A stretch of 64,000 bases of DNA from an uncultured Gemmatimonadota bacterium (GTDB taxonomy: Bacteria > JAAXHH01): contig OX638340.1 in NCBI GenBank assembly GCA_951812955.1, forward strand, positions 352,001 to 416,000, given 5' to 3'. This document shows, piece by piece, positions 2,202 through 14,534 of this stretch; the first letter of the stretch is position 1; every line of letters starts with the position of its first letter. A program made the position numbers and the translations under genes. The notes below the pieces were generated by a model that ran no database searches, was not told the origin of the DNA, and saw only the letters and a list, made by a program, of their open reading frames with translations.

Positions 2202-3359
2202 CTACGCCTCGTGGACGATCGTGTCGACATGATGCGCTTCGATATAGTCCCGGTCGATTTCGGCGCCAAGGCCTGGTCCGCGAGGTACGGGCACACATCC
2301 GTGCTGATCGATGTTTTCGAGCTCGTCCGTGAACTCAGGTGCGTAGACGGGCGGCTTGGTTTTCTTGATTCCGGGATGTACGAGACCCAGTTCGTAGTAG
2401 TTACTGTTGCGGATTGAGGCCATGATGTGCCGATGGGCGAGACCGCCGCCGTGGAGCTCCACGTCCAGTCCGAATCCCTCGGCCGCGTGGGCGATCTTCA
2501 TCACACCGGTGATGCCGCCGTCCTCGTAGACACCCGATCGTACGAAATCCGTTCCACCGTTGACGATGAAATCGACGTGCTGTTCGAGGCCGAAGATATG
2601 CTCGGTCTGCAGGATCGGCGTGGCGATGTGTTCGCGCAGTTTCTTGTGGCCGAAAATGGACACGCCACCGTCCTTGTAGGGATCTTCCAGCCAGAAGAAA
2701 CCGGCTTCGTCGCAGGCCCGGCCCACCTTCAGCGCGTCGGCCCAGGTATTGTATTCGCACGCGGGATCGATCATGAGATCCATGTCGTCGCCGACTCGCT
2801 TGCCCGTGACTTTTACGTTGGCGACCTCGCGCTCGATGGGTGCGTTGCCCCAGCCGTGGATCTTGAACGCACGGTATCCCATGTCCCTGCACTGTTCGGC
2901 GAAATCCGCGAAGGCCTCCGGCGTATGCAGACCGCCGTTCTCGTCGCCGTGGTAAGTGCTGGCGTAAGCGGGCAGGGAAGTCCTGTATCCGCCCAGCAAC
3001 TGACAGACCGGCGCGTTGTAGTACTTGCCCGCGAAATCCCAGAGCGCCACGTCTATCGCGCCGATCTGGGTCCGATCGGTGTGCCGCAGGCCACGCTTCA
3101 GGTCGTTGTAGATCTTCTCTCGCTCGAAGGGATTGCTGCCCAGCAGATATTCGACCGCGACCCCCGACGGTGACGGACCACCCATGTATTCACCGACGAT
3201 GCCCACGTTGGTGTGTATGCGCAGCAAACTCCCACGCAGTTTACGCCTGCCGCCCTTCTCGTACACCAGGTTGAATCCATTGTAATCCACGCCCATGTTT
3301 TCGACGATATATTCGAAGACGACGGTTTCCAGTTTCGTGATCGCGGGTTTCATGTTCAA
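2202..3359 (-). CDS. Enolase-superfamily enzyme, mandelate racemase / muconate lactonizing enzyme (acid-sugar dehydratase-like) family
   Basis: 385-aa ORF with N-terminal capping domain and 'KIHGWG' barrel start, plus the Asp/Glu/Asp metal ligand series ('MIDPACEY', 'FWLEDP') characteristic of the MR/MLE family. Confidence 0.75.
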   Translation of the reverse strand: MNMKPAITKLETVVFEYIVENMGVDYNGFNLVYEKGGRRKLRGSLLRIHTNVGIVGEYMGGPSPSGVAVEYLLGSNPFEREKIYNDLKRGLRHTDRTQIGAIDVALWDFAGKYYNAPVCQLLGGYRTSLPAYASTYHGDENGGLHTPEAFADFAEQCRDMGYRAFKIHGWGNAPIEREVANVKVTGKRVGDDMDLMIDPACEYNTWADALKVGRACDEAGFFWLEDPYKDGGVSIFGHKKLREHIATPILQTEHIFGLEQHVDFIVNGGTDFVRSGVYEDGGITGVMKIAHAAEGFGLDVELHGGGLAHRHIMASIRNSNYYELGLVHPGIKKTKPPVYAPEFTDELENIDQHGCVPVPRGPGLGAEIDRDYIEAHHVDTIVHEA

Positions 3360-3639
3360 CAGCCTCCGTCTCCCTGTACTCTGTTCATACGAATCGTACT
3401 ATTGTCCAGTTACACCATTCACCATGCCATCCTCCGTTCCTCCCATCCTTCTCCTTTCCTCCTCCCAGGTCGGTCTGGTTTCTTCATTCCCTCTATTTTC
3501 ATCCGAGGTCACTTTAGTATTATTAGTAATAGTAATTTTAATGTTAAACCTAATATTTATAGTTCTAATCGTACTAAAATCAGTCGATCTACTGAAAGTG
3601 AACAGACATTCGCCCTAGAGATGGACGTTGAAGCCGTGA

Positions 3640-4866
3640 TCACCGTACCTTCCTGATGTCCCGAATGGCCCCATAGGGAACCCCGGTAATGTCCACCATT
3701 TCTTCGGCGCGGCGCACCGTTTCCGCGACCTCGTCTTTCAGGTCGTCCGGATAATACACCTGTCCGGCACGCACGGTCAGGTGCGGCGTGATCATTCGTT
3801 CACCGGATTCCTGCTGGCCGTGGGCGTCGGTGAAGTGAAAATGGCCCTCTTCCAGGTTGAAAACGGCGATATCGGCGACGCTTCCCTCCTTCAGTGTTCC
3901 GATTTCATCCGACCGGTTCAAAACGCCCGCGGGATTTACGGTCGTCTGGCGGACGATCTCATGGAAATCCAGTCCCATGTTCAGCAGTTTCGACGCCGTT
4001 TCAGGGAGGCTGTGCACCGGTGACTTCAGACTGTAGACGTGAAGGTCCGTACTGATTACGTCCGACAGAAAACCCAGTTCGACGGCCCGTTTCGCAATCC
4101 CGTAATGAAAGCTCCCGGCGCCGTGGCCCAGGTCGAAGAAAACGCCGCGCTTCCTTGCGTCGTACACTTCCGGGATCACCCGATCGTCGTCGCCGAGGAT
4201 ATGATCTCCCTTGCCCTGGTAGCAGTGGGTCACGATATCTCCCGGGCGAAGCAGTTCCAGCACACTTGGCAGGGAGACCCCCTTGTCGATATGGACCATG
4301 ACGCGTGTGTCCGCCATTTCGGCAGCTTCGACGGCCCGCCTGAGCGGTTCCACGCCGTGGCTTCCCACCTGGAATACGCCTTGCCGGACCTTCACGCCTA
4401 CGCAATGATGCGGCCACATGGATATAACCCGGGCCGTGTGCTCGGGATCGGCGTTTTTGATGTCCTCCATCTCGCCGCGCATGGCGTTCAGGAGTCCGAT
4501 GCTGCTGATATGGACGAAGGTGAGCACTTCGGTCCGGGACGGTTCGATAATGTACTCGAGGAAACCGCGCAGATTGGTCCATCCCGGGCTCCCTGCGTCC
4601 ACGATGGTCGTTACCCCCGTGGCCAGGCAGAGGGCGTCGGCCTTGATGCCGAAGGTCGTGGCGCCCGCGTAAACGTGGGCGTGAAGATCTATCCAGCCCG
4701 GTGTCAGGTATTTCCCCGATACGTCGATGGTCGTCTTCGATTCGCCTTCAAGGTGATCGGAAACCGCGGCTATTTTACCGTTTCTGATCCCGAGGTCACC
4801 TGTTTCATTCTTCCGTTGGGACGGATCGATGATCGTCGCACCCGATAGAACCAGGTCGAATTGCAT
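3640..4866 (-). CDS. Amidohydrolase-superfamily metallohydrolase (deacetylase/dihydroorotase-like)
   Basis: 408-aa ORF; N-terminal 'GWIDLHAHVY' H-x-H metal motif after a beta-sandwich lead-in; later His/Asp ligands ('MVHID', 'HCY', 'ISTDLH'). Confidence 0.7.
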   Translation of the reverse strand: MQFDLVLSGATIIDPSQRKNETGDLGIRNGKIAAVSDHLEGESKTTIDVSGKYLTPGWIDLHAHVYAGATTFGIKADALCLATGVTTIVDAGSPGWTNLRGFLEYIIEPSRTEVLTFVHISSIGLLNAMRGEMEDIKNADPEHTARVISMWPHHCVGVKVRQGVFQVGSHGVEPLRRAVEAAEMADTRVMVHIDKGVSLPSVLELLRPGDIVTHCYQGKGDHILGDDDRVIPEVYDARKRGVFFDLGHGAGSFHYGIAKRAVELGFLSDVISTDLHVYSLKSPVHSLPETASKLLNMGLDFHEIVRQTTVNPAGVLNRSDEIGTLKEGSVADIAVFNLEEGHFHFTDAHGQQESGERMITPHLTVRAGQVYYPDDLKDEVAETVRRAEEMVDITGVPYGAIRDIRKVR

Positions 4867-5012
4867 AGAAATCCTCCGAATTTAATCCTATTTGTACGCC
4901 TCGACCATGATGCCCTTCTGAACGCGAGTCATTGACATTTGCAAAGTATAATCATATCGTTTTGTCGCATCAATGGACTTAGTCTGGTCCAGCCACCTTA
5001 AGGACTCGCGCC

Positions 5013-5858
5013 ATGGCGACCGGTTTGACCGAACACCAGATCAGTCAGTATCTCGAAGACGGTTTCCTTCCCATCGAAAGGCTGTTCGATCCCGATTCCC
5101 TCGATCCCCTGATCGCGGAGCTGAACGGGGTCGTCGATGCATGGGCGGAGCGCTACCACGCGGAGGGCAGACTGGCGGATCTGTACGCGGACGAGCCCTT
5201 TGAACACAGGCTGTACCGGATCCACCAGGCCATGGACGGTCGCTGCGGAGAAATGCTGGAGGCCGTGTTAGGAAAGCGGAAGACCGCGGGCATGTTTCAC
5301 GTCATGACCCTGCCCGGGATACTCGACGTCGTCGAATCCCTCATTGGCCCGGAGATCCTCGTCCATCCCCAGTTCAACTCCCGGGCCAAGCTTCCGGACA
5401 AGACCTCCGTCGTGGACTGGCACCAGGACATCGGTTTCCTGGATCCGGACGTGATGCGGACCTTCATGGTCAATTTCTGGCTGCCGATGGTGGATACAGA
5501 TGAACACAACGGCTGCCTGGAGGTGATCCGAGGCAGTCACCGCAGTGAACGCCTGCCCTTTGAGAATTCACCCGAGAACATCGACCCTGAAGCCCTGCCC
5601 GACGGCGACCGGGTGTCCTGCCCCATCCCCAGGGGCGGCGTGCTCCTGTTGCAGCACACCACGGTGCACCGGTCCGCGCCGAATTACTCCGATCATATTC
5701 GCTGGAGCCTGGATATCCGGTACAGCGACTGGCGAGCGCCCACGGGAAGGGACGATGTGCCCGGCTTCATCGCCCGCAGCCGGTCGCATCCGGAGAAGAT
5801 CGCAACCGGGCACGAAGAATGGCGGCGCTTGTTCGAGACGAGCGGGGCGCCGGAGTAA
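5013..5858 (+). CDS. PhyH-family Fe(II)/2OG dioxygenase
   Basis: 281-aa ORF; 'WHQDIGFLD' H-x-D motif, 'GCLEVIRGSH', distal 'HRSAPN'. Second PhyH paralogue in the window. Confidence 0.75.
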   Translation: MATGLTEHQISQYLEDGFLPIERLFDPDSLDPLIAELNGVVDAWAERYHAEGRLADLYADEPFEHRLYRIHQAMDGRCGEMLEAVLGKRKTAGMFHVMTLPGILDVVESLIGPEILVHPQFNSRAKLPDKTSVVDWHQDIGFLDPDVMRTFMVNFWLPMVDTDEHNGCLEVIRGSHRSERLPFENSPENIDPEALPDGDRVSCPIPRGGVLLLQHTTVHRSAPNYSDHIRWSLDIRYSDWRAPTGRDDVPGFIARSRSHPEKIATGHEEWRRLFETSGAPE

Positions 5859-5914
5859 TTTCCTGGAGATGATCGAACCGCCCTCGTATATGCTTCGTTG
5901 CCAGCGAGGATTCC

Positions 5915-7426
5915 GTGGTCGCCAAAATAAACCTCGGGACGTACGTCGGATACGGACTGGACCGAATGGGCAGTCCCGTACATGCCCTGCCTGTCGACCT
6001 CTTCAGGATACTGGCGGGACTGTTGAGTTGCGCCTATTTCGCAGCGGCCTTCGGCGAAGTAAACGACATAAGCGGACCCGGTGGTCTGGTCGATCATCGA
6101 CTCTCGCTGGAGCTGTTTCCCTACACGAAATGGAGCCTGCTTCAGGGTGAAGTTCCCACCGTTCTGCTCCGGGCCGTCTTTGCGGGAGCCATCCTGGTTT
6201 CCGGCATACTCGCGGCTGGATATCGGCCAACGCTTTGTGCGGCGGTGCTGTATATACTGGCGGTATCGGCCTATCGACTGAATTTCCTGGTACTCTACGT
6301 CGATGATGCCGTATTTCACTGGATGCTCCTGTGGCTGATCCTTTTGCCCACGGGGAGCACGTTGACGTGGAAGGACGTCCGGTGCGACGGCAAGGCGGCC
6401 ATGGATCGCTGGCGCAGCCGGACCGTGCCGGGACTGGCCGTACGATGTTTCCTGGTCAATCTGGCCCTGCTTTATGCCTTTTCAGGTCTTTGGAAACTGA
6501 CCAGTCCCATGTGGTTGGAAGGGACGGCCCTGTACGTCATCCTGAAACTGCCCATTGCATGGTTTCCTGATCTGTGGGATGCCGGATCACTGCCGTGGAT
6601 GAAGATCGCCGGCTATGCGGCGTTGGCGTCGGAACCCCTGTTCGTTTTGCTGCTGTTTCTCAAGCCGGGACGACCGGCCAGGTGGATGATCATTGCCCTG
6701 CTGATCGCCTTTCACGCGGGTATAGTCGCGACCCTGAAGATCCCCTTCGCCAACGTCGCCTGCCTGGCGGGGGTAGTACTCTGGTGCCGCCACGAAATCA
6801 TGAACGCGATGGGGAGGAAGACCGTCCCGGAAGGAAGGGGAAAGGTTACCTGGCGCGGCGCGGCGGCCGTGGTGGTCACGGGCATGCTGGGTTTGCAGGC
6901 CGTCCTGGATTTCGCAAAGCCGCAGTGGCGTTACGACGACTGGGAAGTGGGCAGGCCCGTCCCGGCGCAGCAGAAATGGCTGGACGGTCTTCACCTTGCC
7001 GTGTACGGTGCGCTGTGGGCGGGTGGACTGGCGCAGAGCTACCGCCTGCTCGACTGGGTCGACAGCCGCAACTATACGCTTGATTACCGGGTAAGGGAAA
7101 GACGGCCCGAAGGACCTTGGAACGAAGTAGAACCGGAAACCCTCTTTCCCTCTTCCATGCGGGGAATCCTGCTTCAATCCTATCTGCATGGCGTGGTCTG
7201 GCGCAAGTTTCCCCCGGTGAAGGAAGCCGAATTGCGGGCGGGGTTGCGGCAGCGCTTCGCCGCTCGCTATTGCAGAGGGCGGCCAGGCACCGATCTGGTG
7301 GTAGACGTGGAAGTACGGATCGACCGTGTGCTTCCTGACACGCCGCGGCCGGAAAGCGGTGTTTACACTCCCCTCATGCGTTTTGCCTGCGGGAAAGGCG
7401 GGGCGCAACTTCTGGAGATCGAGTAA
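5915..7426 (+). CDS. Large polytopic membrane protein (8-10 predicted TM helices, ~150-aa soluble C-terminal domain); possibly HTTM/vitamin-K-carboxylase-like fold
   Basis: 503-aa ORF with repeated hydrophobic segments (LLSCAYFAAAF, AVFAGAILVSGILAAGY, LYILAVSAY, WMLLWLILLP, LALLYAFSGLW, LLLFLKP, IIALLIAFHAGIVATL), then a hydrophilic C-terminus. Its stop overlaps the start of the next gene (TAATG at 7424-7428). Confidence 0.5.
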   Translation: MVAKINLGTYVGYGLDRMGSPVHALPVDLFRILAGLLSCAYFAAAFGEVNDISGPGGLVDHRLSLELFPYTKWSLLQGEVPTVLLRAVFAGAILVSGILAAGYRPTLCAAVLYILAVSAYRLNFLVLYVDDAVFHWMLLWLILLPTGSTLTWKDVRCDGKAAMDRWRSRTVPGLAVRCFLVNLALLYAFSGLWKLTSPMWLEGTALYVILKLPIAWFPDLWDAGSLPWMKIAGYAALASEPLFVLLLFLKPGRPARWMIIALLIAFHAGIVATLKIPFANVACLAGVVLWCRHEIMNAMGRKTVPEGRGKVTWRGAAAVVVTGMLGLQAVLDFAKPQWRYDDWEVGRPVPAQQKWLDGLHLAVYGALWAGGLAQSYRLLDWVDSRNYTLDYRVRERRPEGPWNEVEPETLFPSSMRGILLQSYLHGVVWRKFPPVKEAELRAGLRQRFAARYCRGRPGTDLVVDVEVRIDRVLPDTPRPESGVYTPLMRFACGKGGAQLLEIE

Positions 7427-9324
7427 TGTGCGGCCTGGCAGCCATCATGAGCCGGGGCGGCGCCTGGTCTCGAGCGGCGCTCGAGCGCGCCACGGATACG
7501 CTCCGGCATCGCGGTCCGGACGGCAGGGGGACCTGGGCCGGACCGGGAGGAAACATCGGCCTGGGACACACCAGGCTGAGTGTGGTCGGCCTGGATAACG
7601 GCGCCCAGCCCATCGCCAGCGAAGATAGCCGGCTTCACCTGGCGGCCAACGGCGAATTCTACGATTTCGAGTCGATCAGGCGGGATCTCGAAAGCCGGGG
7701 TCATGTATTCTCCACGAGATCCGACAGCGAAATCGCCCTCCATCTCTACGAAGAGTCGGGCCGTGCCTGTGTCGAAGATCTCCGCGGCGAGTTCGCTTTC
7801 GTCCTGTGGGATGAGGACCTGCAGATGTTGTGGGCGGTCCGCGACCGATTCGGCATCAAGCCGCTTTACTATGCGGAGGAGGGCGGGGTGCTGTACCTGG
7901 CCTCGGAAGTGAAGGCGCTGCTGGCCGCAGGATTGCCTTCGGCCTGGGACGAGGAGACGGTCTTCCAGCAGATGTTCGCCTGCTTCGACGCGAACCGGAC
8001 GCTCTTCAAAGGTGTCCGGCAGGTACCGCCCGGGCACGGCCTGATCGCCCGGAAAGGAGAGCTCCGCCTTGAGCGGTACTGGGATGTCACGTATCCGCGA
8101 GGGGCGTCCGGAAGTGAGTGGGAGCCAGCGGCTTGTGCCGACGAAGTCCGCCATCTCCTCCACGAGTCGGTCCGCCTCCGAATGCGTGCCGACGTTCCCG
8201 TGGGTTGTCTCCTGAGCGGGGGAATGGACTCTTCGGCATTACTCGGGATCGCCGCCCGGGGCGCGTCTACCCCTAAAGCCTTCACCATCGCCTTCGATCA
8301 CGCCGACTACGACGAAGAACCCGTTGCCCGCCGCACGGCCCGCCATGTGGGGGCCGACTACGAGGTCGTGCAGGCAACCCAGGCGGACTGCGCCGACTAT
8401 TTCGCAGACGCGGTGTGGCACGCCGAGGCGATCCAGGCCAACGCGCACGGAGTGGCCCGGTTCGTACTGAGCCGCGCGGTGCGCCAAGCTGGATTCAAGA
8501 CCGTTCTGGCGGGTGAAGGCGCAGACGAACTCTTCGCCGGCTACGAATTCTGCAGGCCCGCTTTGCATCGGGGCCCGCGTCGCCCTTTCATCGACCTGTT
8601 TCGAATCGCCCGAGCGGTGATCGGCGCACACAGCCCCGCGGAAAGAAAGGTGGCTCTGGTCTCGCCCTGGCTGGTACGGGTAAGCCGCGTACTAGGCCTG
8701 TCGAAGGAGGTCATGGAAGCACTTGCCGGACAGCAGGGCGTCCTGCGCAGTCTGCTGGCGGCGGATTTCCATGAAAGACATAGAGGCCGCGATCCCTACA
8801 GAGTCTTCTTCGACCAGTTCGATTATCGTACGCAACTGGCCGGCCGCGAACCGGTGAAGCAGGTGCTCTACCTGTGGCTGAAATCCCTCTTCCCGGGCTA
8901 CAACCTGGCTGCCGAGCGTGTAGACATGGCCCACGGAGTGGAAGTCCGTCTCCCGTACCTGGACCACCGCCTGTTCGAATACGGCAGCAGGATCCCGGCC
9001 GCGCTTTTGTTCCGGGATGGACAGGAAAAACATCCGCTGCGCGAAGCGGCCCGGCCGTACCTGACGGACGAAGTGTACGCGGGTCCGAAGAAACCGTTTC
9101 TCGCGCCTCCCGCGACGGCCCGGGTGGGAAATAGGCTTTACGAGATGTGCCAGGATACCCTGCGAGGTCCGGGTATGCGGGATCTGCCCTTCTTCGATCC
9201 GGCGTCCGTTGCCCTTCTGCTTGACGGACTGCCGCGCATGGAAGACAGGGCGCGGGCCACGCTGGATCCGTTGATCATGGCCCTGACCTCCCTTTGCGTG
9301 ATCCAGGAGCGATACGGTATGTGA
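7426..9324 (+). CDS. Asparagine synthetase (glutamine-hydrolysing) family amidotransferase, AsnB-like
   Basis: 632-aa ORF starting 'MCGLAAI' (class-II glutamine amidotransferase catalytic Cys2), 'SGGMDSS' PP-loop ATP-pyrophosphatase motif, and AsnB-like C-terminal domain. Confidence 0.85.
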   Translation: MCGLAAIMSRGGAWSRAALERATDTLRHRGPDGRGTWAGPGGNIGLGHTRLSVVGLDNGAQPIASEDSRLHLAANGEFYDFESIRRDLESRGHVFSTRSDSEIALHLYEESGRACVEDLRGEFAFVLWDEDLQMLWAVRDRFGIKPLYYAEEGGVLYLASEVKALLAAGLPSAWDEETVFQQMFACFDANRTLFKGVRQVPPGHGLIARKGELRLERYWDVTYPRGASGSEWEPAACADEVRHLLHESVRLRMRADVPVGCLLSGGMDSSALLGIAARGASTPKAFTIAFDHADYDEEPVARRTARHVGADYEVVQATQADCADYFADAVWHAEAIQANAHGVARFVLSRAVRQAGFKTVLAGEGADELFAGYEFCRPALHRGPRRPFIDLFRIARAVIGAHSPAERKVALVSPWLVRVSRVLGLSKEVMEALAGQQGVLRSLLAADFHERHRGRDPYRVFFDQFDYRTQLAGREPVKQVLYLWLKSLFPGYNLAAERVDMAHGVEVRLPYLDHRLFEYGSRIPAALLFRDGQEKHPLREAARPYLTDEVYAGPKKPFLAPPATARVGNRLYEMCQDTLRGPGMRDLPFFDPASVALLLDGLPRMEDRARATLDPLIMALTSLCVIQERYGM

Positions 9325-9524
9325 CCGAGCCGGAAGTCTTTTGCCGGCCTCGGCCTGTGGGGATCGACCGCCGAATCCGCGCCGAATCCCGTCTTTCCCG
9401 CGCGCGCTCGTAACGATCGGGAGGCGCGGGTGTCGGAATCCCTTGACCCGGTGGCGTGTCCCGTTACTTTCATTATCCTTAAAAGATTGAACCAAAACTT
9501 CCAAGCAGCAACCATCCCGAACTC

Positions 9525-11312
9525 TTGAAAGAAGCCGACTCGTATATGAACAGGGATAAAACAGACCGTCAGTCAAGTGTCCGCTACGAAGCGAACGAGC
9601 GTCCACCGCTCCTCTTGGCCATCGGGCTCGGCCTGCAGATCGCCCTGCTCACGATCGGAGGTGTGGTCCTGACCGTAGCCATCGTGGGCCGGGCCGGCGG
9701 CGCGACCGAGAGCTACCTGACCTGGGGTGTTTTCGCTGCCGCGGCAATTAGCGGAACGACTACCATCATACAGGCGCTGCGTATCGGGCGCCTGGGAGCA
9801 GGCTACGTCCTCATGATGGGAACTTCCGGCAGCTTTATCGCGATCTGCATTTCGGCACTCGCGCAGGGCGGTCCGGCACTGATGGCGACGCTCATCATCA
9901 TTTCTTCGCTATTCCAGTTTTTATTGTCAGCCCGTCTCTCCCTGCTCCGGAGAATACTGACGCCAGCGGTTTCAGGTACGGTCATCATGCTGATATCGGT
10001 CACGGTGATGCCCATAGCGTTCAACATGCTGGGAGCGGTCGACGAAGGGATGTCGACTTCAGCCGCACCGGTCACGGCAATGGCCACCGTGCTGGTTACC
10101 ATCGGAATCGCGTTGAAGGCGAGATCATCCGTGCGCCTCTGGGCGCCCGTGATCGGCGTGGCCGCGGGATCCATGGTGGGGGGTTACTTCGGCCTGTATG
10201 ACACGGACCGCGTGCTGGCTGCTTCGTGGGTCGGACTTCCGGAAGGCTACTGGCCGGGAATTGATATCTCTTTTGGTCCGGCGTTCTGGGCACTGCTGCC
10301 CGCCTTCATGTTCGTAACGCTGGTCGGCGCAGTTGAAACGATTGGTGATTCGGTCGCGATCCAGCGCGTATCATGGCGCCGGCCGCAGGCAGTGGATTAC
10401 CGGGCCGTGCAGGGCGCGGTGGCTGCGGACGGGCTGGGTAATCTCCTATCCGGCCTGATGGGCACGGTACCCAATACGACTTATTCCACGAGTATCGCGG
10501 TGACCGAGTTGACCGGTGTGGCATCCCGCATGGTGGGTGCGGTCGTGGGGATGGCATTCATCCTGGTCGCGTTTATGCCCAAGTTTCTGGCGGTAGTCCT
10601 CGCCATTCCCGATCCCGTTGCCGGAGGATTCCTGCTGGTCTTGCTTTCCATGCTCTTCGTCATAGGTATGAAGCTGGTCGTGCAGGATGGCATCGACTTC
10701 AGGAAGGGACTTGTAGTGGGTGTAGGGTTCTGGATCGGCGTGGGGTTTCAGAATGACGCGATATTTCCCGCGATGCTCTCCGACTTCGCAGGTGGACTGC
10801 TGCGGAACGGAATGACCGCAGGCGGATTGGCGGCAATTTTGATGACCCTCTTCCTGGAGTTGACTTCACCCCGCCGTCATCGCATGGAGACCGACTTCGA
10901 TCTGGCGGCGCTTACGAAGATACGGGCGTTTTTGGAAGCTTTCGCCTCAAGGCAGGGATGGGATCGTGAAACGGCGGACCGGCTCATAGCTGCCAGCGAA
11001 GAAACACTGTTGACACTGATTCCACAGGATGACGAAACCAGTCAGCGGCGGCGGTTGCTTATGGTCGCTCACCGCGAAGGCGAATGCGCGATCCTCGAAC
11101 TTGTCGCGGCGACCGGAGAGGGAAACCTGCAGGACAGGATCGAGCTGCTTGGCGACGAAAGAGCGGTGGAAACACCCGAGGAAATGGAAGTTTCGCTGCG
11201 TCTCTTGAGGCACTTTGCTTCGTCGGTACACCACCAGCAGTACCACGACACCGACATCATCACCCTTCAGGTGGACGTCCCTAAATCCACCCAAGCGACC
11301 GAAGCGGATTAA
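9525..11312 (+). CDS. NCS2 (xanthine/uracil/purine) family permease with ~150-aa C-terminal cytoplasmic extension
   Basis: 595-aa ORF; about 12 TM segments with NCS2-like motifs ('GVFAAAAISGTTTIIQA', 'TTYSTSIAVTELTG'), followed by a hydrophilic tail (aa ~440-595) unlike canonical NCS2 proteins. Confidence 0.65.
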   Translation: MKEADSYMNRDKTDRQSSVRYEANERPPLLLAIGLGLQIALLTIGGVVLTVAIVGRAGGATESYLTWGVFAAAAISGTTTIIQALRIGRLGAGYVLMMGTSGSFIAICISALAQGGPALMATLIIISSLFQFLLSARLSLLRRILTPAVSGTVIMLISVTVMPIAFNMLGAVDEGMSTSAAPVTAMATVLVTIGIALKARSSVRLWAPVIGVAAGSMVGGYFGLYDTDRVLAASWVGLPEGYWPGIDISFGPAFWALLPAFMFVTLVGAVETIGDSVAIQRVSWRRPQAVDYRAVQGAVAADGLGNLLSGLMGTVPNTTYSTSIAVTELTGVASRMVGAVVGMAFILVAFMPKFLAVVLAIPDPVAGGFLLVLLSMLFVIGMKLVVQDGIDFRKGLVVGVGFWIGVGFQNDAIFPAMLSDFAGGLLRNGMTAGGLAAILMTLFLELTSPRRHRMETDFDLAALTKIRAFLEAFASRQGWDRETADRLIAASEETLLTLIPQDDETSQRRRLLMVAHREGECAILELVAATGEGNLQDRIELLGDERAVETPEEMEVSLRLLRHFASSVHHQQYHDTDIITLQVDVPKSTQATEAD

Positions 11313-11400
11313 GCTCCCGCCTGCCCCGGCTGCCTACCTGGCCAGATTCTCCGCGCCTTACGACCTAAGCCGATTAAGCTCCCGCCTGCCCCGACTGCCT
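11296..11400. repeat. Two ~37-bp direct repeats (gattaagctcccgcctgcccc[g/a]gctgcctacctggcc) about 30 bp apart in a convergent intergenic region
   Basis: Copy 1 at 11296-11333 and copy 2 at 11364-11400, one mismatch; lies between the 3' ends of the permease (+) and PhyH (-) genes. Confidence 0.7.
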
Positions 11401-11418
11401 ACCTGGCCGGACGGCTGC

Positions 11419-12201
11419 CTAGCCAGCTGGAGACTCCGCTCCTTCTCCTGCCACGATTACTTCGGGTCTGAAGGACTTGAACGGACTGTTTTTCGAAGAT
11501 CTGCAGTGCGTGGAAGCGTAATGGTACTGCAGCGCCCTGCGGCGCCGATCGCTTTTGTTCGGCGGCGTGTAGTGGTAGGTTTCTCCGTGAAATACGAGGG
11601 CGTCGCCGGCCTTCATGTTGCAGGCGATCGCGTTGTTCTGCGCAGGTGCCGATGACAATCCGTAATCGTCTGCCACGCCACCGTGTTCCCCGATGCCTTC
11701 TCGGTGCGAACCGGGTATGACATGCATGCATCCGTTTTCGACATCGGTATCGTCGAGAGCGATCCAGAACCCGAAGACGTCGTTGGGCTCCAATCGGAAA
11801 TATGCGTTGTCCTGGTGCCAGACTTTCTGACCGCCGAACCGGGGCGGCTTCATCAAAAGCATGCTTTGAAACAGGGCGACATCCTGGCCAATCAGTTCGA
11901 CGGCGATACCCACCATGACGGGATGGTGGGCCAGGGACCGGAACAACTCGTTGTGCAAGGTCATCCTGAAGAGCTTCCTCACGCCGAGTTCCACGCTTTC
12001 TGGCTCTACCGACCCCCGTCGGACGGCGGGTTCGATCTGCACCAGTTCCTCCGGTACGTCCGGGTACCGGTCCACGATCGCGGTGATCTCCCGCTGTATG
12101 GACTTGACTTCGTCGGCTGAAAGAAACTCCTCCGCGACGAAGTACCCGTCTCGTTCAAATGCGGCTTTATGTGTTTCTGACAACACCGTCCCTGTAGTCA
12201 T
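11419..12201 (-). CDS. PhyH-family Fe(II)/2OG dioxygenase
   Basis: 260-aa ORF; 'WHQDNAYF' H-x-D, 'GCMHVIPGSH', C-terminal 'HGETYHYTPPN'. Third PhyH paralogue. Confidence 0.75.
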   Translation of the reverse strand: MTTGTVLSETHKAAFERDGYFVAEEFLSADEVKSIQREITAIVDRYPDVPEELVQIEPAVRRGSVEPESVELGVRKLFRMTLHNELFRSLAHHPVMVGIAVELIGQDVALFQSMLLMKPPRFGGQKVWHQDNAYFRLEPNDVFGFWIALDDTDVENGCMHVIPGSHREGIGEHGGVADDYGLSSAPAQNNAIACNMKAGDALVFHGETYHYTPPNKSDRRRRALQYHYASTHCRSSKNSPFKSFRPEVIVAGEGAESPAG

Positions 12202-12204
12202 CTC

Positions 12205-13218
12205 TCAGTCCTTCCAGTTGAATACGACCCCCATCATGTTCTTCTCCCGCCGGAATATCATCTCGTAGGCTTCGTTGATGCGGGTAAAGTGCATTCTATG
12301 GGTTACCAGGCGTTTCGGTTCCAGTTTGCCGCCGCGCATGAGGTCCAGCGTGTAGCGGCACATGTTCGTCCATCCCCTCCGGTCGCCCCGTTCCGATGGG
12401 TACAGGTAACCGGTCCGCCCGTTTATGGCAATCAGGGAGATCCCCTTGAAATAGAACCATTCCATGTCCAGCGGGTTGAAATCCAGCGGCGGCTCGCCCC
12501 GTCCCGGCAGGGCCACGATCCCTACCCGCCCGTTGTCGCGCACGATCTGGCACGAAGCGCGAAGGGCGGGCCATGGGTTGGCTGTGAGAATGACCAGGTC
12601 GATCCCCTCGCCACCGGTGAAGTCGTCCAGCTTCTCGTCGAGATCGGGATCGTTGTACAGGAAGGTCGCGTCCGCTCCCATGCGCTTGGCCATTTCCATG
12701 CGGACCGGGCTGTTCGCGATGCCGATCGTGCGGGCGCCGAGGCAGGGCCCGAGTCCTACGGCGCCGAGTCCGAGAACGCCGAGGCCGACAACGGCCACGT
12801 TCTCGCCAGGCTGGAACTGCGACTTGTAATAGCACTGGGCGCTCAATGTGTACAGGTGGCCGTATACGGCGTCCTCGTCATGCACGCCGTCAGGTACCTT
12901 CACGAGTACCTCGTCGTCCCTTGCGATGAACTCGGACTGGTGGGGGTAACGGGATATCACCCGGTCGCCCACGGCGAAATCCGTCACCGCCTCTCCCACG
13001 CCCCGGATGACGCCCAGATTGCTGTCTCCCACCCATCGCGGAAAATCGGGTGCGCCCGGGACCTGCTCCGCGCCCTCATAGTTTCCCCGGTCCGTACCGA
13101 TCTTGAGGGCGGAAATCACCGTTTCGACCCATAGTTCGTGGGGTCCCAGGTTATCCGTGTCCAGCGGATGTTCTTCGATACGAAGATCCCGCGGACCATG
13201 CAGCACGGCGATTTTCAT
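12205..13218 (-). CDS. Zinc-dependent alcohol dehydrogenase (MDR superfamily; threonine/sorbitol-dehydrogenase-like)
   Basis: ORF 12205..13275; start set at internal ATG 13218 ('MKIAVLHG') with GGAG upstream. 'GVLGLGAVGLG' Rossmann glycine motif and MDR catalytic domain. Confidence 0.75.
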   Translation of the reverse strand: MKIAVLHGPRDLRIEEHPLDTDNLGPHELWVETVISALKIGTDRGNYEGAEQVPGAPDFPRWVGDSNLGVIRGVGEAVTDFAVGDRVISRYPHQSEFIARDDEVLVKVPDGVHDEDAVYGHLYTLSAQCYYKSQFQPGENVAVVGLGVLGLGAVGLGPCLGARTIGIANSPVRMEMAKRMGADATFLYNDPDLDEKLDDFTGGEGIDLVILTANPWPALRASCQIVRDNGRVGIVALPGRGEPPLDFNPLDMEWFYFKGISLIAINGRTGYLYPSERGDRRGWTNMCRYTLDLMRGGKLEPKRLVTHRMHFTRINEAYEMIFRREKNMMGVVFNWKD

Positions 13219-13316
13219 GGATTCGGCTCCGGTTTTTTCGTGCGTGTGAGTTCTATCTTCTTCTTGTCCGATCAATTCCGATCAGGTCCTGCGTTTCACA
13301 AAAGTACCGGACCGCG

Positions 13317-14534
13317 TCAGGCCGACAGGGCGGAAAGGCAGCGGTCGTAGACTTCGAACCGCTCGCCTTCGGTTTCCTCCGGGTCTACCATCTTAAGCCA
13401 CATAGCACTGCCGGGCTTTGCCGAGCTGTAGGAACGATGGCTTCCGATGACGGAGGGATCCTCGCCGTGCCAGGCGATCTCTCCCTCCTGCATGTAGATG
13501 AATTTCCCCCGGTACCGGTCCACGATGTCCTTTCTGTGGTCGCGGTAGAACAGGCCCTGCTCGCAGGCCGTGCGCCTCAGGGTATGAATCAGTTCGGGCG
13601 CTTCGTCGATGTCCGAGTCGAAGTGCGCAACCGGCGCCTGAACGTCGCTTACGAAGTCGATTTCATCCAGGTCAACCGTACCGAAACCCCTCTGCGCGGC
13701 CACCAGCAGGTGATTGCGGTCGCGGCGGAAGGGCGGTGAGGGCCAGTCGGATGCGGGGTCGTGGCCCATCAGGAAAGCGCCGCAGGCGTCGGTGGCCGTG
13801 ATCTGGTCTCCCGCGATCAGCACGTCGCCAACGCGGCCTTCGCCACCCCATTCCCTGCCCTTCTGCCCCACGAGCCCATCGATGATATTCAGGCAGGGAT
13901 CCGTAATCATCGCGAGGTCGGGGAGGACGTAGGAAAGCCTTATGGCGTGGTGGAAGTAGGTGCGTACCCGTCCCTCCGGGCGAACGATGGGTGGTAGCCC
14001 GAAGAGGTTCTTCATGCAGAGCGTGATGCCCATGAAAAGGTGATTCTTCATCTTCGCCACGGAGATCACCTCGTCCGCGTCCTCGAACACGCCGCTCAGG
14101 ACATACCGGTCGAACATGTTTCCGCCACCGGGCACCTCGTATACAGCCCAGGGCGGACGGTTGGAATCATCGTACCTCACGTTGAACTCGCGGAGGTGAT
14201 GGACGTAATTGAACTCGTCCGGCGTGAGTTTATCCGTGGCGTAGGGATTGGTGTCCGTCGCGTAGATTTCCGCATCGGTATGTTCCCGAAGCAACTGAAG
14301 CACGGCCCTGCAGACCGCGTCGTCCACCAGTTCCTGTCGGCGGCCCTTGAACCGGACGACGCTGTCCATGGGCTTCATCATGTTGAACTTGATGACGATC
14401 TTCCTGGCCTTTTCTATGCGCGCCCAGGACTCCTTTAGCGGTTCGGTGATGCGTCTCAGCGTCTCGTAGACGCCCTGATAGTCCGTCTGATGGTCGCAGG
14501 ACGTTGCACGAACGGAGTATTGCTTTACCGGCAT
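13317..14534 (-). CDS. DUF362-family protein
   Basis: 405-aa ORF with the 'KMKNHLFMGITLCMKNLFG' core typical of DUF362 proteins. Confidence 0.5.
   Translation of the reverse strand: MPVKQYSVRATSCDHQTDYQGVYETLRRITEPLKESWARIEKARKIVIKFNMMKPMDSVVRFKGRRQELVDDAVCRAVLQLLREHTDAEIYATDTNPYATDKLTPDEFNYVHHLREFNVRYDDSNRPPWAVYEVPGGGNMFDRYVLSGVFEDADEVISVAKMKNHLFMGITLCMKNLFGLPPIVRPEGRVRTYFHHAIRLSYVLPDLAMITDPCLNIIDGLVGQKGREWGGEGRVGDVLIAGDQITATDACGAFLMGHDPASDWPSPPFRRDRNHLLVAAQRGFGTVDLDEIDFVSDVQAPVAHFDSDIDEAPELIHTLRRTACEQGLFYRDHRKDIVDRYRGKFIYMQEGEIAWHGEDPSVIGSHRSYSSAKPGSAMWLKMVDPEETEGERFEVYDRCLSALSA

Follow-up and report, generated by a model that had tools for sequence, protein, structure and literature searches.

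The function of the bacterial relatives of vitamin K-dependent gamma-carboxylase (VKGC) has been an open question ever since they came to notice, and a role has been assigned to MloH alone, in an antibiotic pathway. As portrayed in the papers that cite its description, MloH belongs to the malonomycin pathway of Streptomyces as its VKGC orthologue; carboxylation beside a carboxylate has been proposed for it, and the chemistry is used on substrates other than γ-carboxyglutamate (Gla) proteins (Law et al. 2018, via citing papers). Giant viruses encode VKGC-like epoxidase/desaturase fusions with truncated cores, for which lipids, rather than proteins, have been proposed as substrates (PMC13486548), and Firmicutes encode HTTM-DCC1 proteins with a DUF5819 partner (bioRxiv 10.64898/2026.08.19.745780). 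Here, we describe a two-gene locus in a window of 64,000 nucleotides from an uncultured Gemmatimonadota bacterium (lineage JAAXHH01; assembly GCA_951812955.1, contig OX638340.1, positions 352,001 to 416,000 of the forward strand), in which a VKGC-fold membrane protein of the HTTM superfamily (gene 1) is directly followed by an AsnB-family glutamine-dependent amidotransferase of the 'long' type (gene 2). Our literature search found no description of a VKGC-like/AsnB pairing; the nearest discussions are those of MloH, the giant-virus epoxidase-desaturases, and the HTTM-DCC1/DUF5819 pairs. We tentatively read the pair as a quinol-driven VKGC-type enzyme and an adenylating amidotransferase that would act on a shared membrane-associated acid, a reading that we rate as possible rather than probable.

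The locus resembles each of these systems in part. Gene 1 is, like MloH, a bacterial VKGC-type protein, whereas MloH is set apart, by its description in the citing papers, through its place in a nonribosomal peptide synthetase–polyketide synthase (NRPS-PKS) cluster and a fused DUF5819-like region; the gene 1 family, found in non-actinobacterial phyla, has AsnB as its sole companion. SdpB of Bacillus subtilis is likewise an HTTM-superfamily membrane protein with a dedicated partner, but the partner family differs, AsnB is missing, and no reaction has been defined. The same superfamily and the same dependence on a dedicated partner link gene 1 to the HTTM-DCC1 proteins, which differ from the pair in their partner families, in lacking AsnB, and in having no defined reaction (bioRxiv 10.64898/2026.08.19.745780). 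The giant-virus proteins share with gene 1 the catalytic Lys, a Glu for D263 of human GGCX, and the absence of N290; unlike gene 1, they do without a C-terminal domain, have sterol-type desaturases and VKOR as fusion partners or neighbours, and occur without an amidotransferase (PMC13486548). On the side of gene 2, the amidotransferases TsnB9, TIGR03108, and TIGR03104, all with non-asparagine substrates, have the same N-terminal-nucleophile (Ntn) glutaminase and PP-loop synthetase domains, the same adenylation residues, and the same 'long' form, in which an insertion follows the GEGADE(L)F motif. AsnB/LtsA, which amidates peptidoglycan meso-diaminopimelate (mDAP), also has this two-domain 'long' architecture. 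Both a conserved cationic amphipathic helix and an obligatory VKGC-like neighbour are peculiar to the gene 2 clade, and its gene context differs.

A preliminary description of the window, made from the sequence alone, had reported the two open reading frames (ORFs) and their stop/start overlap, and both ORFs were recovered at the same coordinates (Table 1). The TAA of gene 1 (7424-7426) and the ATG of gene 2 (7426-7428) have one A in common (gagTAATGtgc), and a Shine-Dalgarno (SD)-like GGAGA (7414-7418), 7 nt ahead of the gene 2 ATG, is embedded in the 3′ end of gene 1. The hundreds of homologues that each of the two has mark them as real genes rather than chance ORFs. A genome scan with one genome per species returned 121 gene 1 relatives, of which 80 were retained, from Gemmatimonadota (including Longimicrobiales), Acidobacteriota (several classes), Latescibacterota, Binatia, Opitutaceae, and Myxococcales; one of the 80 is labelled 'proteobacterium', and Armatimonadota carriers were met separately from the 80. 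The pair spans at least seven bacterial phyla. An AsnB-type gene begins 3-188 nt 3′ of the membrane gene in 77 of the 79 evaluable genome loci, and a reciprocal search from three additional proteins of the AsnB clade found the membrane gene directly upstream in all three. The preliminary description would have been weakened by a pairing that was not conserved; instead, the combined loci have the membrane gene directly followed by an AsnB-type gene in 80 of 82 evaluable cases, distributed over 13 lineage groups (membrane proteins less than 55% identical between groups, gene calls non-overlapping) in which the flanking genes differ and are unrelated to one another. No third gene or small ORF is common to the 13 lineage groups, and only gene 1 and gene 2 recur. 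The two genes form a self-contained module that is kept as a unit. The nearest relative of the window pair lies on OY762445.1, an unclassified chromosome of a metagenome-assembled genome (MAG), with 95-97% identity in both proteins, and the nearest classified relatives are Gemmatimonadota. No natural fusion of gene 1 with AsnB was found among the best 150 family representatives.

One alternative is a malonomycin-like tailoring pair, in which a carboxylase and an amidotransferase decorate a small natural product. The assigned role of MloH would fit such a pair, as would the natural-product amidotransferase TsnB9, to which gene 2 is closer than to any other solved structure; however, NRPS, PKS, or other core biosynthetic genes are absent from all neighbourhoods examined, and the pair stands alone in unrelated contexts. 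We consider a role in secondary metabolism extremely unlikely.

Pfam and NCBIfam searches with the window gene 1 protein gave no match even at E 10, and no match was obtained in a sequence search of the PDB with the family profile. Homologues are plentiful: about 190 were found by word index, and an exhaustive search, clustered at 50% identity, gave 178 clusters at E ≤ 1e-30 and 5,938 at E ≤ 1e-3. A per-member scan of 39 family members produced weak matches to HTTM in 7 (best E 9e-7), to DoxX in 12, and to DUF3556 in 6, and two database representatives of the family carry a precomputed PF05090 match. An AlphaFold2 model built on an alignment of 39 sequences (predicted local distance difference test score, pLDDT, 88.3; predicted template-modelling score, pTM, 0.89) contains nine transmembrane (TM) helices (residues 24-334) followed by an alpha/beta C-terminal domain (335-503), in agreement with the 8-10 TM helices and soluble C-terminal domain of the preliminary description. 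Its tentative 'HTTM/VKGC-like' label for the membrane partner is also well supported by structure: in a Foldseek comparison of the model with the PDB, the sixteen human GGCX entries matched (E 4e-8 to 3e-3, probability 1.00, TM-score about 0.5) were the only significant structures, the best match beyond GGCX being no better than E 0.17, and the catalytic Lys/acid pair is kept. The modelled membrane core has the fold of the VKGC/GGCX epoxidase core. Because the loops on the N-terminal side carry 16 Lys and Arg residues and those on the other side only 4 (positive-inside rule), the protein is oriented with its N-terminus inside, and K194 and the C-terminal domain are periplasmic, the orientation found in GGCX. 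In support of a periplasmic C-terminus and a redox context, the 953-aa protein P0226, a distant family member, continues at its C-terminus into a fused multihaem cytochrome c, in which eight CxxCH motifs occur. P0226 has a Ser at the K194 equivalent and retains E240, and may represent a variant with different redox chemistry. N-terminal, cytoplasmic extensions of 150-290 residues with no Pfam match are present in P0051, P0059, P0070, P0081, and P0093 (650-680 aa) and in P0122 (795 aa), and may be either a real domain or an artefact of gene calling. For the periplasmic C-terminal domain no structural relative was found.

To locate the catalytic residues, the gene 1 family profile was aligned with hhalign to human GGCX, whose sequence was checked against PDB chains beforehand, and to a 16-species vertebrate VKGC profile. 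The two alignments, both statistically weak, cover the same approximately 260 columns and agree in placing R31 on R68, K194 on K218, W200 on W223, G203 on G226, E240 on D263, and F266-H267 on F286-H287. In GGCX, K218 acts as the base in the deprotonation of vitamin K hydroquinone (PMC12589487), and D263 is its acidic partner, of which the D263E variant has 25% activity (PMC13486548). Judged from the alignments, E240 is a conservative substitution for D263 that maintains the acidic partner. K194 is retained in 195 of 197 full-length family members, E240, D131, and W200 in every one of the 197, and H267 in 195 of 198 family members. The lumenal propeptide-binding domain of GGCX (PF22777) is not present in the gene 1 protein. 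Since the Pfam models, N290, and the lumenal domain all fail, gene 1 is not filed as a VKGC orthologue; it represents a distinct bacterial VKGC-like family and a structural relative of GGCX. A by-eye match of QSYRLFDW with YSWDMM of GGCX is not claimed, the C-terminal alignment being non-significant.

The gene 2 product is an AsnB-family enzyme, with matches to PF00733 (E 2e-82, 278 bits against a cut-off of 21), GATase_7 (141 against 25), and GATase_6. The only NCBIfam cut-off that it passes is that of the generic asparagine synthase TIGR01536 (428.3 bits against 267.1), while it stays below those of the XrtA/PEP-CTERM amidotransferase TIGR03108 (348 against 816.9, aligned over the full length), the NAGGN amidotransferase TIGR03104 (295 against 570), E. 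coli-type AsnB NF006949 (279.5 against 499), and the lasso-peptide isopeptide cyclase NF033535 (198.9 against 525). The preliminary assignment to glutamine-dependent amidotransferases of the AsnB family is borne out by these scores. The more specific identities that it had offered (lasso cyclase, beta-lactam synthetase, or XrtA-associated enzyme) are not, with scores far under the cut-offs and neither an exosortase nor a precursor nearby; exosortase or exopolysaccharide (EPS) genes were found in none of the neighbourhoods examined. Gene 2 is a broad AsnB-family member that belongs to no characterised subfamily. Its closest PDB entry is TsnB9 (7ylz), a natural-product hydroxyamidotransferase (E 5e-56), which ranks ahead of E. 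coli AsnB, and its best 120 homologues (627-648 aa, at least 51% identity) are all named 'asparagine synthase (glutamine-hydrolysing)'.

Active-site residues were compared in an alignment of 67 partner orthologues, the window protein, and E. coli AsnB (NC_000913). The Cys2 nucleophile and the SGGMDSS PP-loop, both pointed out in the preliminary description, are in place, the protein starting with MCG and carrying LLSGGMDSS at residues 262-270. In E. coli numbering, Cys1, N74, G75, D98, the PP-loop, E348, D351, Y357, K429, and K449 are invariant in 68 of 68 proteins, and the window protein also has R49 and E76, completing the glutamine-site set; Cys1, R49, N74, E76, D98, the PP-loop, E348, D351, Y357, K429, and K449 are common to gene 2 and E. 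coli AsnB (PDB 1ct9). On these residues, the glutaminase and adenylation chemistry of gene 2 is predicted to be intact. E. coli AsnB differs in lacking an insertion of about 100 residues and in having K376, D384, and R387 where gene 2 has Q, S, and A, positions whose alignment crosses this insertion, so that an acceptor pocket unlike the aspartate site of E. coli AsnB is suggestive only. In Longimicrobiales-type loci (L049-L084, about 30 partner orthologues), R49 is replaced by Leu (LGHTLLAI vs LGHTRLSI) and E76 mostly by Gln, while Cys1, N74, and D98 are retained, which suggests that this clade uses a different nitrogen donor or depends on ammonia.

The simplest account of gene 2 would be an ordinary, housekeeping asparagine synthetase, with gene 1 an unrelated or merely regulatory operon neighbour. 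Its pass of the TIGR01536 equivalog, its annotation as asparagine synthase (glutamine-hydrolysing) by all sources, and the full set of adenylation and glutaminase residues in the window protein would be expected from such an enzyme, and no second AsnB was found in the 64-kb window, which says little. Yet the adjacency of the two genes across 13 lineage groups with unrelated flanks would be unexpected for a housekeeping gene, the E. coli AsnB equivalog failed, the residues aligned with D384 and R387 are S and A, the Longimicrobiales orthologues have lost R49 and mostly E76, and acyl-activating enzymes fill the slot in Binatia. A housekeeping role is, in our estimate, very unlikely.

The gene 2 protein has no TM segment (maximum Kyte-Doolittle hydropathy 1.38) and is cytoplasmic. 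At the start of its insertion, a cationic amphipathic helix (residues ~379-399, Table 1) has the highest hydrophobic moment of the protein (0.71), and this amphipathicity is kept in 68 orthologues as a property and not as a sequence, with a median within-protein percentile of 0.998 and a median net charge of +5. The helix is a candidate element for peripheral docking on the membrane or on the partner. AsnB-family enzymes are known to amidate lipid II (AsnB/LtsA of Gram-positives, on mDAP) as well as sugars. The helix could also serve an enzyme of envelope glycan or peptidoglycan amidation, acting on a lipid-linked precursor (mDAP on lipid II or a uronic acid) that the membrane protein presents as a non-redox partner; the XrtA/PEP-CTERM exopolysaccharide model, full length, is the best specialised model for gene 2, and a universal cell component as substrate would explain why two genes suffice. 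That score, however, is far under its cut-off, glycosyltransferase, exosortase, Wzx/Wzy, or mur genes do not recur in the flanks, and both the near-absolute conservation of the Lys/acid pair and the multihaem cytochrome fusion would be left unexplained, which makes this role quite improbable.

The two loci without AsnB are both Candidatus Binatia, and their membrane proteins retain all invariant residues. There, the AsnB slot is taken by carboxylate-activating or -transferring enzymes of the fatty-acyl type (L042 and L081 in Table 1), a non-orthologous replacement; at a further locus (L088), AsnB is itself followed by a gene of this kind. It is mainly this replacement that leads us to favour a lipid-like carboxylic acid over a peptide as substrate. 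A peptide or protein would be matured if the VKGC-like enzyme modified exported Glu/Asp residues and the AsnB-type enzyme amidated or cyclised the same, trans-encoded precursor in the cytoplasm. All characterised VKGC-type enzymes indeed take peptidyl substrates (GGCX, and MloH with an aspartyl intermediate), AsnB relatives act on peptides, with partial scores for the lasso-cyclase and NAGGN models, and the periplasmic domain could serve as a peptide-binding exosite. SdpB, of the HTTM type, is required for the SDP toxin in Bacillus. Precursors of peptides that are ribosomally synthesised and then modified post-translationally (RiPPs), on the other hand, normally adjoin their enzymes, and neither a conserved small ORF nor a third gene is present across the 13 lineage groups. 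A precursor-peptide ORF, for which the preliminary description had pointed to two gaps upstream of gene 1, has no credible candidate there or behind gene 2, as the gaps 4867-5012, 5859-5914, and 9325-9524 contain only short, unconserved TTG/GTG frames. Moreover, the periplasmic domain is unlike the propeptide-binding domains of GGCX, the low lasso-cyclase score and the intact glutaminase domain argue for amidation rather than lactam formation, and the Binatia genes in the AsnB slot are acyl-lipid enzymes. On balance, we regard peptide maturation as unlikely.

We return to a menaquinol/O2-driven VKGC-type enzyme and an adenylating amidotransferase that would together tailor one membrane-associated carboxylic acid. 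The K194/E240 pair of gene 1 would deprotonate a quinol, whose reaction with O2 would generate a strong base, as in GGCX with vitamin K hydroquinone; this base would abstract a proton beside a carboxylate, for which carboxylation by CO2 is the precedent. In the cytoplasm, gene 2 would adenylate a carboxylate of the same molecule at the expense of glutamine and ATP and convert it to a carboxamide, and the helix at ~379-399 would seat the enzyme at the membrane's inner face or on the cytoplasmic loops of gene 1. The dependence on quinol and O2, carboxylation as the outcome, the order of the two steps, and a physical complex of the two proteins are features that we infer. Because nothing else is encoded with the pair, the substrate would be a common metabolite or envelope component that the locus does not encode, most plausibly lipid-like or lipid-linked. 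It would be membrane-bound or exported, as the preliminary description had suggested, and the amphipathic helix and the acyl-metabolism genes of Binatia point the same way. So far as is known, the phyla that carry the pair contain menaquinone and are mostly aerobic, which we count in favour of this quinol-driven mechanism. A more specific version, in which the carboxylase fixes CO2 on the alpha-carbon of an outer-leaflet lipid or lipid-linked acid to give a malonate-type group, which the AsnB-type enzyme would turn into a malonamate/carboxamide, is doubtful.

Several observations weigh against the quinol-driven mechanism. The sequence similarity to VKGC is weak (no Pfam match at E 10, HTTM weakly in 7/39), the two hhalign alignments have E-values of 0.03 and 0.004 with low probabilities, and they place the N158-N159-H160 motif of the Glu site differently. 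Aligning the C-terminal half with GGCX 350-560, a region that includes residues 374-418, gave no significant result (E 0.47), and the periplasmic domain bears no relation to the lumenal domains of GGCX. N290 of GGCX, which forms a hydrogen bond to the vitamin K hydroxyl, is not conserved, the aligned residue being I270 (Ile/Val in the family); the giant-virus VKGC-like epoxidases also have Ile at this position (PMC13486548). With one predicted active site on each side of the membrane, a shared substrate must flip or span it. The lipid hint comes from three loci (L042, L081, and L088), and the aspartate-site comparison hinges on an alignment across an insertion. Furthermore, 'long' AsnB homologues reportedly make asparagine in some bacteria.

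Table 1. Features of the gene pair and its surroundings (window numbering) and gene order at three comparison loci (numbering of each locus)
Feature	Position	Strand	Details
Gene 1, VKGC-fold (HTTM-superfamily) membrane protein	5915-7426	+	GTG start, 503 aa
Gene 2, AsnB-family glutamine-dependent amidotransferase, 'long' type	7426-9324	+	ATG start, 632 aa
Coupling junction	7414-7428	+	SD-like GGAGA and TAATG stop/start overlap (7424-7428)
SD-like GAGGA	5906-5910	+	4 nt 5′ of the gene 1 GTG; read from the sequence
K194 codon	6494-6496	+	Aligned to GGCX catalytic base K218; motif AGLWK vs AGVKK
E240 codon	6632-6634	+	Aligned to GGCX D263, acid partner of K218, in two hhalign alignments
H267 codon	6713-6715	+	F266-H267 aligned to GGCX F286-H287, vitamin K pocket region, in two hhalign alignments
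Periplasmic C-terminal alpha/beta domain (residues 335-503)	6917-7423	+	Near-invariant block QSYRLFDWxDxRN
Cys2 codon, N-terminal glutaminase nucleophile	7429-7431	+	Invariant in 68/68 partner orthologues
PP-loop SGGMDSS (residues 264-270)	8215-8235	+	ATP pyrophosphatase/adenylation motif
Cationic amphipathic helix (residues ~379-399)	8560-8622	+	RGPRRPFIDLFRIARAVI; start of the insertion absent from E. coli AsnB
PhyH-family 2-oxoglutarate (2OG)-Fe(II) oxygenase	5013-5858	+	PF05721, E 2e-25; 56-nt gap to gene 1
Sigma-70-like promoter match	4932-4960	+	TTGACA-17-TATCGT, 10/12; upstream of PhyH; site number not above shuffled expectation
L042	3439-6623		Membrane gene, then ANL-family adenylating enzyme of acyl-CoA-ligase type
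L081	3670-9738		Acyl-CoA dehydrogenase, membrane gene, WS/DGAT acyltransferase; next, on the other strand, 4HBT thioesterase
L088 (AsnB present)			AsnB, then AMP-binding/acyltransferase fusion

The genes around the pair in the window vary with lineage. The PhyH gene upstream is possibly co-transcribed with gene 1, given the 56-nt gap. No sigma-70-like promoter match lies between the two; PhyH precedes the pair only in the window, L005, L008, and L010, and is a lineage-specific neighbour outside the conserved module. A second PhyH-family paralogue (11419-12201, minus strand) is about 25% identical to the first, and the flanking block beyond gene 2 also includes an NCS2 permease with a C-terminal extension of about 150 residues (9525-11312), a zinc-type alcohol dehydrogenase (ADH; 12205-13275), and a DUF362 protein (13317-14534). 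The downstream permease/PhyH/ADH/DUF362 genes, together with an upstream PhyH or DsbA/SurA-like gene, occur only in the clade to which the window belongs (about eight genomes), and PhyH, permease, DsbA, ADH, and DUF362 were rejected as core parts on this ground. Divergently upstream (2202-4866, minus strand) lie an enolase-superfamily (MR/MLE) protein and an amidohydrolase/deacetylase unrelated to the pair, the latter passing NF006689 (410 against 371 bits). No Rfam riboswitch or other known RNA was matched in 3500-12500, and no PADLOC defence-system model was matched.

Two other candidates for a core part were likewise discarded. A DCC1-like thiol oxidoreductase was present in the initial three of three neighbourhoods but in only 4 of 88 loci, none of them the window, and a flavin amine-oxidase occurred in 4 of 91 loci as copies that are not orthologous to one another. 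The DCC1-like genes (PF04134, putative thiol-disulfide oxidoreductase) lie at L086 9278-9748, L030 463-852, L087 14027-14434, and L088 11036-11374, and further thiol-redox neighbours are DsbA/SurA-like (L001 6536-7672), DsbH-like thioredoxin (L088 252-2303), and CMD/AhpD-like (L003 11518-11922) genes. Fusions of HTTM with DCC1 are known, and such neighbours could point to what reduces a quinone epoxide. At L086 (11500-14018), a reverse-transcriptase (RVT_1) gene directly adjoins the partner AsnB, which is truncated (504 aa), and integrase and transposase genes surround the locus; at L091 transposases lie immediately upstream of the pair. The mobile-element neighbours at both loci are consistent with horizontal mobility of the pair.

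Conserved in at least seven phyla with no described function, the pair therefore probably belongs to a quinone-driven pathway, as yet uncharacterised, in which an acid of the cell envelope is modified. Gene 1 defines a distinct family of about 180 clusters at 50% identity that is tied to one partner of well-understood chemistry, and the proposed reactions provide a testable handle in candidate mass shifts of +44 (CO2), -1 (amidation), and +43 (both). If the quinol-driven mechanism is true, strong-base chemistry driven by quinone epoxidation would extend to bacterial envelope metabolism, and thousands of 'asparagine synthase' annotations in soil phyla would be misnamed. Should its alpha-carboxylation version hold, the pair would constitute a bacterial 'vitamin K cycle' system and give bacterial VKGC homologues their first physiological role outside secondary metabolism, and the lipids of the envelope would be modified in a way that forms a class of its own, new and found in soil phyla such as Gemmatimonadota and Acidobacteriota.

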